Positions 2,272-28,815 are shown, numbered from the stretch's first letter. The stretch: DNA of 64,000 nt from an uncultured Alphaproteobacteria bacterium (GCA_963704595.1 OY969922.1:3754660-3818659); one strand, 5' to 3'. The notes: generated from the letters alone by a model not told the origin. Made by a program: numbers and translations.

Positions 2272-2368
2272 GCCGCCGGTCCGGCTGACCGCCGGAGCCA
2301 TGCAAAACTGCAATGGCGGTCGCCATCGCCGCCCTTGCGCCCGCCAGGGCGCCGGGCGATAGCGGCAT

Positions 2369-3283
2369 ATGGAACATCACCCGACCGTCCCCGTCACTGC
2401 GTCCGCGGCGAGCAACAACACGCTGCGCGGCGTCGCCTTCATCGTGACCGCGATGGTCATCTTCTCGGCTCAGGACGGCCTGTCGAAGGCGCTGGCGGAC
2501 AATCACTCCGCCATCTTCGTGACCATGTGGCGCTACTGGGCCTTCGGCGCGGTGTGTTTCGTCCTCCTCTGGCGCAAGGGCTTTCGCACCGGCCTTGCAT
2601 CCGGCCAGCCACGGCTGCAGGTCGCGCGCAGCGTCACGCTGGCGCTCGAGATCATCGTCGCCATTGCCGCATTCGCCCTTCTCGGCCTTGCCCCCAGCCA
2701 CGCGATCTTCGCGTTCATGCCGCTTCTGGTGGTGGCGCTGTCGGGGCCGGTGCTCGGCGAAAAGGTCGGCTGGCGGCGCTGGTCTGCCGTCGGCGTCGGC
2801 CTCATCGGCATGCTCCTCATCATCCGGCCCGGCACGCGCGCGCTGACGCCCGAGATCGGCGTCGCGCTGGTCGCGGTGTTCATGTTTGCCGCCTACCAGC
2901 TGATGACCCGCCGCGTCTCCCGCACCGACACCGCGATGACGAGCTTCTACTACACCGGCATCATCGGCGCGGTGACGATGACGCTGATCGGCCCGTGGTT
3001 CTGGTCGTGGATGACGCCCTGGGAAGCCGTCATGATGGCGACCCTGTGCGTCACCGGGATGACCGGGCACTACCTGATGATCAAGGCGTTCGAGGCCGCG
3101 GAGGCGTCCGCGATCCAGCCGTTCATGTACCTGCAGACGGTGATGGCGACCGGCATCGGCGTCACGGTCTTCGGCGAGGTGCTGAGCCCGTGGACGGTCC
3201 TCGGCGGCGCCATCGTCATCGGCGCCGGCCTCTTCGCCTTCTGGCGCGAACGCGTCCGCGCCAAGGCCGCCCTCCGCCGCTGA
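2369..3283 (+). CDS. DMT superfamily transporter (EamA family, 10 TM)
   Basis: 304-aa polytopic membrane protein with two EamA-like halves. Confidence 0.8.
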   Translation: MEHHPTVPVTASAASNNTLRGVAFIVTAMVIFSAQDGLSKALADNHSAIFVTMWRYWAFGAVCFVLLWRKGFRTGLASGQPRLQVARSVTLALEIIVAIAAFALLGLAPSHAIFAFMPLLVVALSGPVLGEKVGWRRWSAVGVGLIGMLLIIRPGTRALTPEIGVALVAVFMFAAYQLMTRRVSRTDTAMTSFYYTGIIGAVTMTLIGPWFWSWMTPWEAVMMATLCVTGMTGHYLMIKAFEAAEASAIQPFMYLQTVMATGIGVTVFGEVLSPWTVLGGAIVIGAGLFAFWRERVRAKAALRR

Positions 3284-3790
3284 CGGCGGCCCGGCCCGGG
3301 GGCGTGCGGGGCTCTGGCGGCTGCGGGACGCTGGCGGTTGCGGGACGCTGGCGGTTGCGGGACGCTGGCGCCGTCTCCACGGTGCAACGTGGCGACCGGC
3401 ATCGGCGTTACGGTTTTCGACGAAGTCCTGAGCCAGTGGATGGCCTAGGCGGCGCCACCGCGTCATCGGCGCAGGCCTCTTCACCTTCTGGCGCGAACGC
3501 GTCCGCGCCAAGGCCGCCCTCCGCCGCTGACGGCGGACCGGCCCGCCGGCTTGCGGGGCTATGGCGCCGCCTCACTATACCAACATGGCGACCGGCATCG
3601 GCGTCACGGTCTTCGGCGAAGTGCTGAACCCCTGGATGGTCCTGGGCGGCGCCATCGTCATAGGCGCAGGCCTCTTCGCCTTCTGGCGCGAACGCGTCCG
3701 CGCCAAGGCCTCCCTCCGCCGCTGGCGGAGGACCGGCCCGGCCACTGCGGGGCTCTTGCGCTGTCTGACGATGCCAACGCGGCGCGTTTA
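3143..3790 (+). repeat. Three tandem, diverging copies (~200-250 bp each; starts ~3143, ~3389, ~3585) of the last ~145 bp of the DMT gene plus its 3' flank
   Basis: Direct reading: the segment encoding MATGIGVTVFGEVL..FWRERVRAKAALRR* recurs twice downstream with ~10% divergence. Copy 2 contains in-frame stops; copy 3 keeps an ORF (3561..3836). Confidence 0.85.
3316..3373 (+). repeat. 17-bp microsatellite (gcgggacgctggcggtt) x3 inside copy 1 of the tandem array
   Basis: Read directly from the sequence. Confidence 0.85.
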
Positions 3791-3997
3791 TCGGAGCGTT
3801 GGCGACGGGTGGCGCGAACGAGCGGGTGCGGGGTGAATGCCACGACGTGGAAGAAGGCAGTCCCGTGGGCGGCGCGGTGTGCTGCACATGATGGCTGTTC
3901 ATTGCCAGAAGACGATGCCAAATACGGCTCGTCCGCCCGCAACCTCGTACTTGCATGGAGCTGTGAGCGAACGCGCGTGTTCGAGCGGGGAACGCGG

Positions 3998-4453
3998 TCA
4001 GGTCGTGCCGTAGACCTTGTCGGCGCGCTCCTCGAAGGCGGAGGCGAAGCGGCGGAACGCCCGGTCGAAGACCGAGCCCATCACCGTGGCCAGCGTCCGG
4101 CTCTTGAACTCGTAGCGAATGTCGAAGTTGACGTCGCAGGAGTGCTCGTCGACCGGAGTGAAGGTCCAGCGATTCTTCAGCTCCTGGAACGGGCCGTCGA
4201 GATACTCCACATCGATGATGTCGTTGGCCCGGTCGAGGACGACGCGTGAGGTGAACGTCTCGCGGATGAACTTGTAGGCGACGGTCATCTCCGCGACCAG
4301 CACCTCGCGCCCGTCGGCCAGCGTGTCGCGGCGGCGCACGGTGAGCGAGCGGCACAGCGGCACGAACCGCGGGTAGGACTTCACGTCCGCCACGAGGTCG
4401 AACATGTTGGGCGCGGCGTGCTTGACGCGGCGGGTCGTCTCAAACTGCGGCAT
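3998..4453 (-). CDS. ratA: SRPBCC-family protein (RatA/YfjG-like, CoQ-binding/polyketide-cyclase fold)
   Basis: 151 aa; family-level match; overlaps the 3' end of lipA by 14 nt, the usual alphaproteobacterial arrangement. Confidence 0.75.
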
Positions 4454-25735: not shown

Positions 25736-26653
25736 GTGCCGATCGCGACGCAATTCTCCGACACGGGCAATCTGCGCGCGATTCTCCTGATGCTGGGCGC
25801 GGCGGGGATGTTCTCCTGCCTCGACACAACGGCGAAGTTCCTCGGCGAGGCCGGTCTCGCACCGTTCGACGTCGTCTGGCTGCGCTACGTCACGCACATC
25901 ATCCTGCTCGGCATCTTCCTGCGGGTCTGGACGCACCGCGAGGCGTTCCGTGCGCACCGCCCGTGGATGCATGTCCTTCGCGGCCTCCACCTTCTCGCCG
26001 CGACCTTCTTCAATTTCTGGGCGCTCAAATATCTTCAGCTCGCCGAAGCGAGCGCGATCATGTTCTGCGCGCCGCTGATCGTGACCGCGCTGGCGGGGCC
26101 GATCCTGGGCGAAACTGTCGGCCTCCGCCGCTGGATCGCCGTCGGCGTCGGCTTCGCGGGTGTCCTCATCGTCACCCGGCCCGGGATGGGCGCGATGCAC
26201 TGGGCGATCATCCTGTCGTTCATCTCGGTCTTCAACTACGCGATGTATTCCCTCCTGACGCGCAAGATGAACCGGACCGAGTCCGCCGAGAGCCTCATGA
26301 TGCTGGGCGCGGTGGTCGGTGCTGCCGCGCTCTCGCCGGTCGCCTACAGTGCCGTCTCGAGCCTCACGACGCCCAGCCTTTGGGCGCTCGCCTTCATGAT
26401 GGGCTTCTTCGGCGCGGTGGGGCACTACGCTCTCGTGGTGGCGCACCGGATCGCCAACGCGTCGACGCTCGCCCCATTCATCTACACGCAGATGGTCTGG
26501 ATGATTCTGTTCGGCTTCGTCATCTTCGGCGACGTGCCGGACGCGATGACCCTCGTCGGCACGGCGATCATCGCGGCGGCCGGCCTCTACATCCTCCACC
26601 GCGAGCGGGTGCGCGGGCAGGTCATCGCCTCGCAGGAAGCGGGCGTGCAGTAG
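25736..26653 (+). CDS. DMT superfamily transporter (EamA)
   Basis: GTG start abuts the marR stop; 10-TM EamA duplication. Confidence 0.8.
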   Translation: MPIATQFSDTGNLRAILLMLGAAGMFSCLDTTAKFLGEAGLAPFDVVWLRYVTHIILLGIFLRVWTHREAFRAHRPWMHVLRGLHLLAATFFNFWALKYLQLAEASAIMFCAPLIVTALAGPILGETVGLRRWIAVGVGFAGVLIVTRPGMGAMHWAIILSFISVFNYAMYSLLTRKMNRTESAESLMMLGAVVGAAALSPVAYSAVSSLTTPSLWALAFMMGFFGAVGHYALVVAHRIANASTLAPFIYTQMVWMILFGFVIFGDVPDAMTLVGTAIIAAAGLYILHRERVRGQVIASQEAGVQ

Positions 26654-26714: not shown

Positions 26715-27896
26715 ATGCTGCACACAATTTCGGGCTTCGACCGCATCGGCGAGGAAAACGCGTTCGCCGTACTGGCGCGGGCCAACGCGCTCGCCGCCAA
26801 GGGGATGGACGTCATCAACCTCGGCATCGGCCAGCCGGACTTTCCGACCCCGCCTCACATCGTCGAGGCCGCAGTAAAGGCGCTGCGCGACGGCCACCAC
26901 GGCTACACGCCCGCCCCCGGCATTCCGGCGCTGCGCGAGGCCGTGGCCGCCGACATCACGATGCGCACCGGCGTCGAGACCTCGCCCGAGAACATCCTCA
27001 TCGTGCCCGGCGGCAAGGTGACGATGTACATGGCGATCGGCATGTTCGGCGAGCCGGGCGCCGAGATCCTCTACCCCGACCCCGGCTTCCCGATCTACCG
27101 CTCGATGATCGAGTTCACCGGCGCGACGCCGGTGCCGCTGCCGATCCGCGAAGAGAACGGCTTCGCCTTCTCCCCCGCCGACGTGGAAGCGCGGATCACC
27201 GACAAGACGCGGCTCGTCATCATCAACTCCCCCGCCAACCCCACAGGCGGCGTCAGCACGCCGGACGACGTGCGCGCGCTGGCAAAGATCCTCGAGCGCT
27301 ACCCCAACGTCGCGGTGATGTCCGACGAGATCTACAGCCGGATGACCTACGACGGGCTGGAGCACCTGTCGCTGGGCTCCTTCCCCGAACTGCGCGACCG
27401 GCTCATCCTCCTCGACGGTTTTTCCAAGACCTACGCGATGACCGGCTGGCGGCTCGGCTGGTCGCTGTGGCCGGACGCGCTGTTCGACAAGGCGCGCAAG
27501 CTCGCCGTCAACGCATGGTCCTGCGTCAACGCCCCGGCGCAGTATGCGGGCGTTGCGGCGCTGACCGGCCCGCAGGACGCGGCGGAAGCGATGGTCGAGG
27601 CGTTCGACGAGCGGCGGCAGGCGGTGACGGCTGCGCTGAACGCGCTGCCGGGTGTGACCTGCGCGGTGCCGAAGGGCGCGTTCTACGCCTTCCCCAATAT
27701 CAGCGCGACGGGCTGGAAGGCGAAGCCGCTGGCCGACGCGCTGCTGGCGTCGACCGGCGTCGCCCTCATCGGCGGACCGGACTTCGGCACGCTCGGCGAA
27801 GGCTACGTCCGCCTCTCCTACGCCGCCGCCAAGGACCGCATCCTCGAAGGCGTCACGCGGATGGGCAATTTCCTGGCGGACAACCCGCCGAAATGA
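26715..27896 (+). CDS. Pyridoxal-phosphate-dependent aminotransferase (class I, aspartate-aminotransferase-like)
   Basis: GGAGG ribosome-binding site; PLP lysine motif SFSKTYAMTGWRLG. Confidence 0.88.
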   Translation: MLHTISGFDRIGEENAFAVLARANALAAKGMDVINLGIGQPDFPTPPHIVEAAVKALRDGHHGYTPAPGIPALREAVAADITMRTGVETSPENILIVPGGKVTMYMAIGMFGEPGAEILYPDPGFPIYRSMIEFTGATPVPLPIREENGFAFSPADVEARITDKTRLVIINSPANPTGGVSTPDDVRALAKILERYPNVAVMSDEIYSRMTYDGLEHLSLGSFPELRDRLILLDGFSKTYAMTGWRLGWSLWPDALFDKARKLAVNAWSCVNAPAQYAGVAALTGPQDAAEAMVEAFDERRQAVTAALNALPGVTCAVPKGAFYAFPNISATGWKAKPLADALLASTGVALIGGPDFGTLGEGYVRLSYAAAKDRILEGVTRMGNFLADNPPK

Positions 27897-28045
27897 CGCT
27901 CGGAGGCCAGCCCGCGCGGCCGGCCTCCGCCGCAGCCGCATGACCGGCCCGAGCGCAACTTCCTGGCGGACAACCCGCCGAAATCACGCTCTGAAGCCAG
28001 CCCGCGCGGCTGGCCTCCGTCGCGGCCGCATGGCCGGTCCCAGCT
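27865..28045 (+). repeat. ~90-bp tandem duplication of the aminotransferase 3' end plus its terminator hairpin (copy A 27865..27954, copy B 27955..~28045)
   Basis: Direct reading: gcaa(t/c)ttcctggcggacaacccgccgaaat(g/c)acgct...agcccgcgcgg...cctcc...gcatg(a/g)ccgg occurs twice, with the hairpin ggaggcc-N13-ggcctcc at 27902..27928. Confidence 0.85.
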
Positions 28046-28368
28046 TCGGCGGGGCCTTGTTGCACGCCGCCCGCGCTATGCCGACGGTAATGGCCGCCGG
28101 CCGTCTCTCCAAAAGAATTGCTGGGGTTGGTTGGTCATAAGTCCCCCGCCGCAGTATCGAGTCACGCTGTTGAGGGCTGCAAAGCGTGCAACGCCCCCGC
28201 CCCGCGCTCCTGAGCTGATGCAGCGCAAAGGCGGCGACGTTGCGGAAAGTGAACCTTCGCACCGAGCTGGACGCTTAGATCCGGATTGGGCGCTTTTCAC
28301 GGACGGCAGGCGGGCAAGCCGCACCATTTCGTGCGCCGCTTCACCCGTCGGGCGGCCGGCGCAGCGGC

Positions 28369-28815
28369 TCAGCCGATGTAGGTGAGGTCGACTTCGCGCG
28401 GGCGGCCGTGGGCGCGGTGTTCGACGAGGTAGATGCCCTGCCATGTGCCGAGGCGCATCGACCCGTTGGCGCAGGGGATCGCAAGGCTCACGTCGCACAG
28501 CATCGACTTGATGTGGCCCGGCATGTCGTCGGCCCCCTCGTCGTTGTGGCGGTAGCCGGCGTTCGGCGGCGCAAGCTTGACGAGGCTGTCGACAAGGTCG
28601 GCCTGAACGTCGTCGTCGGCATTTTCCTGGATGACCAGCGAGGCCGTGGTGTGCCGGACGAAGAGGGTGACTAGGCCCGCAGAGGCACCGATTTCGCGCA
28701 GCCAGCCGCTGACCTCGCGCGTGATGTCGGCGAAGCCCGGGCCGCGGGTCGGGACCGCGAGCCGGCCGCTGACGACGCGGCTGACCGCGCCGTCCGACAG
28801 CGTCTCGACGGGCAT
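28369..28815 (-). CDS. yjbQ: YjbQ family protein (UPF0047, secondary thiamine-phosphate synthase-like)
   Basis: 148 aa; family-level similarity across the whole length. Confidence 0.8.
   Translation of the reverse strand: MPVETLSDGAVSRVVSGRLAVPTRGPGFADITREVSGWLREIGASAGLVTLFVRHTTASLVIQENADDDVQADLVDSLVKLAPPNAGYRHNDEGADDMPGHIKSMLCDVSLAIPCANGSMRLGTWQGIYLVEHRAHGRPREVDLTYIG

Follow-up and report, generated by a model that had tools for sequence, protein, structure and literature searches.

A 64,000-nucleotide (nt) stretch of DNA from an uncultured Alphaproteobacteria bacterium (GCA_963704595.1 OY969922.1:3754660-3818659; hereafter the window) contains a gene for an EamA/DMT-family transporter whose 3′ end, together with its downstream flank, occurs three times head to tail. 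The explanation that we favour, with a probability of roughly 80%, is that neutral, lineage-specific tandem segmental duplications arose through illegitimate, non-homologous replication or repair events and then decayed. The same kind of event would have occurred independently at the end of an aminotransferase gene elsewhere in the window.

The transporter gene is intact, and its protein shares 84–85% amino acid (aa) identity with orthologues of 300–309 aa over 94–98% of its length. Its final 141 nt, stop codon included, encode the last transmembrane (TM) helix and a basic tail, MATGIGVTVFGEVLSPWTVLGGAIVIGAGLFAFWRERVRAKAALRR. An earlier note on this DNA, made from the sequence, had described the last ~145 bp of the gene as repeated; the repetition stands, and the coding tail is corrected to 141 nt. 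Together with ~55 nt of downstream flank, this tail makes up the repeated unit (Table 1). A direct-repeat search of the window placed the in-register copy starts at 3143, 3390 and 3585, Tandem Repeats Finder (TRF) reported an array of period 195 with a score of 580, and MAFFT aligned the three units column for column, all bearing out the three head-to-tail copies that had been claimed. The 64-kb window has three occurrences of a 42-mer taken from the unit (with 0, 1 and 0 mismatches), all of them inside the array, whereas 100 dinucleotide shuffles had none (0.00 expected). Over ~180 aligned columns, copies 1 and 2 (c1 and c2) are 88.3% identical, copies 1 and 3 (c3) 90.4% and copies 2 and 3 86.7%, in line with the ~90% given previously.

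Table 1. Coordinates of the features discussed, counted from the first nucleotide of the window.
Feature	Coordinates	Strand	Basis
EamA/DMT-family transporter gene, intact, 304 aa	2369..3283	+	Open reading frame (ORF) list; Pfam EamA E=5.4e-20
Repeat copy 1: functional gene tail (3143-3283) and flank enlarged by the 17-bp array	3143..3388	+	
17-bp minisatellite, inside the first flank	3305..3372	+	TRF, direct-repeat family, unit listing
Repeat copy 2: dead tail fragment	3389..3584	+	MAFFT alignment, variant columns
Repeat copy 3: tail fragment, stop codon lost	3585..3780	+	Right boundary from junction comparison
91-aa fragment ORF from copy 3: one TM helix and a read-through tail	3561..3836	+	ORF list
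Unique spacer, copy 3 to the stop codon of the RatA-like gene, 217 nt	3781..3997	.	
Segment missing in the two nearest relatives: EamA and leader, three tail units, 217-nt spacer	2272..3997	.	L029 and L031 spacers
RatA/CoQ10-like gene (Polyketide_cyc), convergent, downstream	3998..4453	-	Pfam E=6.7e-31; homologues named RatA family or COQ10
Locus 2, unit 1: 32-nt end of the aminotransferase gene (stop 27894-27896) and 58 nt of flank	27865..27954	+	
Locus 2, unit 2: decaying duplicate, TGA to TCA, hairpin stem degraded	27955..28044	+	
Motif CCTCCGCCGC-N8-GACCGGCCCG in the locus 2 flank	27924..27951	+	Also in locus 1 flanks

To polarise the differences between the copies, eight orthologous tails were added as outgroups to an alignment of the three copies, and every variable column was classified. 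Copy 1 carries no derived change in 141 nt relative to the orthologue consensus. Copies 2 and 3 have six changes in common, three at coding sites and three in the flank, and at the three coding sites the outgroups match copy 1 in 7 of 8, 8 of 8 and 7 of 8 cases. Unique variant columns in the coding part number 11 in copy 2 and 5 in copy 3, and in the flank 2 and 4, respectively. The polarised columns indicate the tree (c1,(c2,c3)), that is, two sequential duplications with copy 1 ancestral; between the first and the second, the fragment appears to have diverged by ~3%, after which the copies would have decayed independently. The earlier suggestion of an old segmental duplication or a slippage-prone site is upheld as to the divergence and decay of the copies, and is refined here to these two successive events. 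A check for hybrid copies revealed no visible mosaic, since each of the six shared sites, from one end of the unit to the other, is of the c2/c3 type in copy 2; the third copy may have come from slippage of the fragment or from an exchange at the extreme 3′ end, both of which fit this result.

Decay is evident in both downstream copies. Copy 2, reported before as disrupted, has GTG in place of ATG, an in-frame TAG at 3446–3448 after 19 codons, and indels of −1 and +2. In copy 3, one of the five unique coding changes turns TGA into TGG and so removes the stop codon, which leaves the 91-aa frame with its different C terminus, as had been described. Of 18 polarised substitutions, 12 run from G/C to A/T, the direction expected for unconstrained DNA in a genome of ~70% GC.

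Comparison with orthologous loci, which the earlier note had proposed, found neither duplication in relatives. The set for the transporter comprised 24 loci from Acuticoccus species (Amorphaceae, Hyphomicrobiales) and uncultured relatives, with 67–85% aa identity to the EamA protein; blastn and tblastn found a single tail in all 24. Where these loci have gene calls, the next gene begins 10–90 bp past the EamA stop codon, and none of the 24 has the neighbour genes of the window. The identical EamA protein is present on one public contig only, 4,706,582 bp long, and the next relative is 84–85% identical, with no relative above 85% aa identity besides the source contig in searches of genome contigs, metagenome contigs and 5.8 billion proteins.

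The first flank holds a smaller and younger repeat. TRF delimits a minisatellite at 3305–3370 with a period of 17, 3.9 copies and 93% matches; its units are, in order, the degenerate TGCGGGGCTCTGGCGGC, two identical copies of TGCGGGACGCTGGCGGT and the near-identical TGCGGGACGCTGGCGCC. The array is as real as the earlier note had it, with its extent and count amended from three units at 3316..3373 to four at 3305–3372. The founding motif, TGCGGGGCTNTNGCG, is found a single time in copy 2 and a single time in copy 3. The 3 × 17 nt extra in the minisatellite make copy 1 ~51 nt longer than either of them and account for the spacing between copies of 247 versus 195 bp. The array, with its perfect 17-nt units, is a separate and recent slippage event whose founding motif each copy has once.

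At the second locus, the end of an aminotransferase gene (Pfam Aminotran_1_2, E=1e-63) is repeated in two 90-bp units with 10 differences in 90 (89% identity), confirming the event of the same kind that had been noted at 27865..28045, with its end now at 28044. The flank in unit 1 includes a hairpin, GGAGGCC...GGCCTCC. Short-range direct repeats of at least 28 nt across the window comprise both arrays and seven two-copy families, which are short and 72–83% identical. In the nearest relative (L033/L034), the aminotransferase is 93% identical at the protein level, nucleotide identity is 83% over 5 kb and gene order is kept; the aminotransferase end is single-copy there and in L035. The convergent spacer between the aminotransferase and UPF0047 genes measures 472 bp in the window and 46 bp in L033.

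Two further observations concern this locus. The spacer contains 324 nt of unique, somewhat lower-GC DNA (28045–28368), for which we found no match in the compared loci or the rest of the window and no match in Rfam, and which has an 84-aa ORF with no Pfam match. A second, distinct EamA-family gene lies at 25736–26653, directly upstream of the aminotransferase, an arrangement kept in L033; the presence of EamA genes at or beside both duplicated loci appears to be a coincidence.

At four-fold sites, the proportions that differ between the window and the nearest relative are 0.34 (78/229) and 0.33 (23/70), and the copies have diverged by 10–13% at locus 1 and by 11% at locus 2. Because copy divergence is below the four-fold-site divergence, both duplications are younger than the split from the nearest relative. 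Very roughly, their age would be 0.3–0.45 of that split, which is far from recent.

The junctions were then compared with one another and with the outer boundaries. Both internal junctions at locus 1 are alike, reading ...ccaac/gtGGCGacc and ...ccaac/atGGCGacc (the slash marks the breakpoint). Copy 1 is preceded by ...acggtg/atGGCGacc and copy 3 is followed by ...ccaacgcGGCGcg, so that the breakpoints have only GGCG in common. Junction homology amounts to at most the 4 nt of GGCG at locus 1, and none is detectable at locus 2, figures to be read with ~10% divergence since the events and with GGCG being common in this DNA. No long direct repeat brackets either array in the outer-boundary comparison, and no mobile-element genes lie near either one, with no transposase-like or recombinase-like gene and no integrase in the neighbourhood. 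Duplications with no flanking repeats and with 0–4 bp of junction homology have been attributed to template switching or end-joining, not to RecA-mediated exchange (bioRxiv 10.64898/2026.05.22.727201), and duplications with short homology arise spontaneously and often in cultured bacteria, as seen in Salmonella (PMC3411829). The anatomy of the arrays, their branching order, lineage specificity and decay pattern, and the lack of mobile-element genes nearby are what the analysis shows; the pathway we infer is likely to be template switching or slipped mispairing, possibly end-joining.

The sequence of events that we propose has four steps. A segment of ~195 bp, made up of the end of EamA and the first ~55 nt of its flank, would first have been duplicated in head-to-tail orientation. 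With the stop codon inside that segment, the gene would have remained intact, and the extra copy would have been left functionless in a spacer between convergent genes. About six substitutions would next have accumulated in the fragment before a second duplication, whose junction was the same, gave rise to copies 2 and 3 through slippage or through unequal exchange among the copies then present. These two would have decayed separately, mostly through G/C-to-A/T changes, with purifying selection keeping copy 1 constant. Much later, slippage would have expanded the 17-nt flank motif of copy 1 to about four units. What survives may have been filtered by harm: a duplication wholly within a gene would disrupt it, whereas one that spans the stop codon would leave the gene intact and the fragment in the spacer, and convergent spacers lack promoters, so that extra DNA should be least harmful there. 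Both arrays would thus lie at gene 3′ ends in convergent spacers because copies survive only where they are harmless.

Several points weigh against this account. A few shared bases at a junction are not enough to identify a pathway, all the more as GGCG is frequent in this GC-rich DNA, and the original junctions may have been blurred by ~10% divergence. Two such arrays occur in 64 kb as against none in ~233 kb of the relatives' loci, which hints at a lineage-specific factor beyond background mutation, although the counts are too small to interpret. That the copies are neutral is likewise something we infer. Finally, the flanks of loci 1 and 2 have a 34-nt stretch in common, 28 of 34 positions being identical, which a purely random process does not predict.

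This last similarity gives rise to the strongest alternative, which we nevertheless consider improbable: that a single lineage-specific, sequence-associated process, acting at terminator-like hairpins between convergent genes and marked by CCTCCGCCGC-N8-GACCGGCCCG, produced both duplications. In this scenario, a REP-like (repetitive extragenic palindromic) or hairpin element, or a recombinase site, carrying the motif after stop codons would provoke duplication and DNA gain. The same process would perhaps also account for the EamA insertion described below and for the unexplained extra spacer DNA; candidates are recurrent fork stalling with template switching, or an undescribed small element or recombinase site. 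Besides its position at locus 2, the motif lies in the locus 1 flanks at 3271–3298 (1 mismatch) and, exactly, at 3518–3545 and 3713–3740. Exact matches to its 20 specified bases are essentially confined to the two duplicated loci, with 5 matches at up to 3 mismatches versus 0.14 expected. Of 5,000 dinucleotide shuffles, 2 reached the unit-versus-unit alignment score; of 636 real windows, none did. At both loci the similar stretch starts about where homology with relatives stops, and both spacers are much larger than in the nearest relative.

The excess is slim, however, with an alignment score of 22 against 21 for the best real-window control, and the 34-nt similarity is a marginal, post hoc observation. 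A profile built from the five motif copies (nhmmer) turned up no additional member, either elsewhere in the window or across 233 kb of related loci. Predicted pairing of the motif differs between the loci, being with downstream sequence at locus 1 and with upstream sequence at locus 2; the flanks fold no more stably than shuffles (z from +1.0 to −1.6), and no palindrome is common to both loci. The duplicated units also reach far past the motif into coding sequence, and there is no transposase-like or recombinase-like gene nearby. If such a process did exist, it would enlarge spacers and capture gene ends; were the motif to prove genome-wide, directed spacer growth would be indicated, which the present evidence does not support.

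The surroundings of the transporter gene itself were also compared with those in relatives. Searching with the RatA-like gene identified two relatives that keep the gene order, L029 (72–79% nucleotide identity) and L031/L032 (90% over RatA–LipA). The window, L029 and L031 have in common an AlaX-like, a rhodanese and a 207-aa gene on one strand, which converge on the RatA-like gene and a lipoyl synthase gene on the opposite strand. The convergent stop codons are 14 bp apart in L029 and 36 bp apart in L031, with no EamA gene at the site in either, and the 36-bp spacer of L031 holds a GCGGGGCC...GGCCCCGC hairpin. By this comparison, segment 2272–3997 is most parsimoniously a lineage-specific insertion or relocation between the convergent 207-aa and RatA-like genes. 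Around it, a search for terminal repeats returned only weak inverted matches of 22–25 nt (73–78%), typical of GC-rich DNA.

The orthologues of EamA occupy at least four different contexts, and the single-gene relocation here has no recognisable mobile-element signature. At ~2330–2366, 37–50 nt 5′ of the EamA start are 81–86% identical to the upstream regions of four orthologues (L017, L003, L021 and L014), in which EamA has quite different gene neighbourhoods despite the similar upstream stretch. With ~40 nt conserved upstream, the EamA gene apparently kept its own leader when it was relocated, and the stretch may be a leader or promoter that travels with it; Rfam has no match in the stretch upstream of the EamA start.

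Islands that target tRNA genes and gene ends are known to integrate at the 3′ end of a gene and to duplicate it. The copies could accordingly be scars of integrative elements, each integration having brought a new tail and displaced the old one before the element DNA was deleted. In favour of this idea, comparison with L029 and L031 marks the EamA segment as an insertion in its own right, and unique DNA of no known origin follows both arrays. Yet the copies abut at an identical junction with homologous flank in every unit and no element DNA between them, copies 2 and 3 are no closer to any orthologue than copy 1 is, and no integrase is encoded nearby; the polarised tree fits duplication in situ. 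We regard such scars as very unlikely. Homology-facilitated capture of copies 2 and 3 from another lineage was rejected as well, neither being nearer to any orthologue than copy 1.

Function for the extra tails is less probable still. They could be silent cassettes that switch the last helix or the C terminus, or the 91-aa ORF could be a real small membrane protein. The frame of copy 3 is open, and blocks of exact identity between copies 1 and 3 reach 42 nt and could support recombination. Along the lineage to copy 3, including the shared branch, codon changes are 5 synonymous to 3 nonsynonymous. Dead copy 2, by comparison, has 4 synonymous and 5 nonsynonymous changes plus 2 and 1 on the shared branch, a similar synonymous excess, and the pattern in the ORF is therefore ascribed to mutation at G/C third positions and not to selection. 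The ORF has no Pfam match, and inspection of the sequence upstream of 3561 and 3585 revealed no convincing ribosome-binding site. No relative has such copies, and an inner-membrane helix is under no obvious pressure to vary. As for cassettes, no mosaic pattern is seen among the variant sites, copy 1 retains the ancestral state throughout, and a stop codon and frameshifts have degraded copy 2. The 91-aa ORF is most likely not a real gene. Its exact sequence is nonetheless a called protein, P0121, in the public annotation of the source contig, bearing out the warning that gene-fragment ORFs here would confuse annotation.

An assembly artefact, in which a single-copy region was expanded, seems about as improbable as function. 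The near-identical 17-bp units could have been miscounted by an assembler, and a frameshift in a neighbouring gene could be an assembly indel. The long units, by contrast, differ at ~10–13% of positions in a phylogenetically coherent pattern that mis-assembly of one locus cannot create, and the sequence lies in a 4.7-Mb contig; since the copies are diverged and decaying, they are old and not an assembly expansion. The least credible reading, a diversity-generating retroelement with its variable repeat at the gene 3′ end and template repeats downstream, has the ~90% identical downstream repetition of a gene 3′ end on its side, but the adenine test refutes it: adenines of the putative template account for only 7 of 16 differences in copy 3 and 8 of 18 in copy 2. 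There is also no reverse transcriptase among the neighbour genes, and the repeated part is a TM helix, not a ligand-binding fold.

Housekeeping genes adjoin both duplicated loci. The neighbours include genes for an AlaX-like protein, a rhodanese, the RatA-like protein, lipoyl synthase, UPF0102 and Peptidase_S11. The window's orthologue of the 207-aa gene that L029 and L031 have before RatA (~1690–2271, + strand) is frameshifted near 2140: in tblastn, residues 1–21 and 21–63 of the L031 fragment match in two separate frames. Either the gene is a pseudogene or the assembly has an indel here. The spacer between copy 3 and the RatA-like gene has no match in the 35 loci or elsewhere in the window and none in Rfam. 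Rfam searches of 2900–4100, 2200–2450 and 27800–28450 returned only a chance-level Xoo1 match (20 bits against a gathering score of 70), and a scan of 3100–4100 for promoter and terminator consensus sequences gave no match. Among the relatives' loci, the only long-period tandem repeat lies at 307–748 of L004 (period 45/60, 7–10 copies, ~69% matches), upstream of the EamA orthologue of Acuticoccus yangtzensis; it may be a coding repeat.

Read as non-homologous tandem duplications, the two loci offer a clean, datable example of small, stop-spanning duplications that persist and decay in a GC-rich alphaproteobacterium. Such fragments yield false gene calls, as with the 91-aa ORF, which public protein collections already contain. 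In this lineage, spacers between convergent genes are tolerated sinks for DNA gain, measuring 36–46 bp in the nearest relative and 472–1726 bp here.

Set beside known systems, the arrays have little in common with diversity-generating retroelements, in which a variable repeat (VR) and a template repeat (TR) are paired: they match in having a ~90% identical downstream repeat but lack adenine specificity and a reverse transcriptase and involve the wrong domain. They resemble REP sequences and bacterial interspersed mosaic elements (BIMEs) in following stop codons in convergent spacers, in being GC-rich with hairpin potential and in tandem reiteration; by contrast, the units here include 32–141 nt of coding sequence, are not dispersed in the 64 kb and have no palindrome common to the loci. 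REP/BIME sequences and miniature inverted-repeat transposable elements (MITEs) were both rejected, there being no dispersal in the window, no terminal inverted repeats and no conserved palindrome, which agrees with the earlier note in placing the repeat outside the REP and MITE types.

Like gene-fragment pseudogenes, copies 2 and 3 are truncated, decaying paralogous fragments, one of which (copy 3) is annotated as a protein; they differ in that they appear to stem from tandem duplication in situ and not from insertion sequence (IS) activity or failed horizontal transfer. As in minisatellites, or variable number tandem repeats (VNTRs), the near-identical 17-bp array of about four units is typical of slippage. 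The 195-bp and 90-bp arrays belong with the tandem repeats of long period, but their units have diverged and have probably ceased to be dynamic. The best match is with non-homologous tandem duplications of bacteria, which are likewise head to tail, have no long flanking repeats and can gain a further copy with the same junction; their 0–4 nt of junction homology would be a further resemblance, as far as the diverged junctions here can tell. Published examples are mostly large, unstable, young and experimental, whereas those described here are 90–195 bp long, fixed and diverged by ~10–13%. The window thus presents an ordinary case of a known kind, non-homologous tandem segmental duplication followed by neutral decay, with a minisatellite added.

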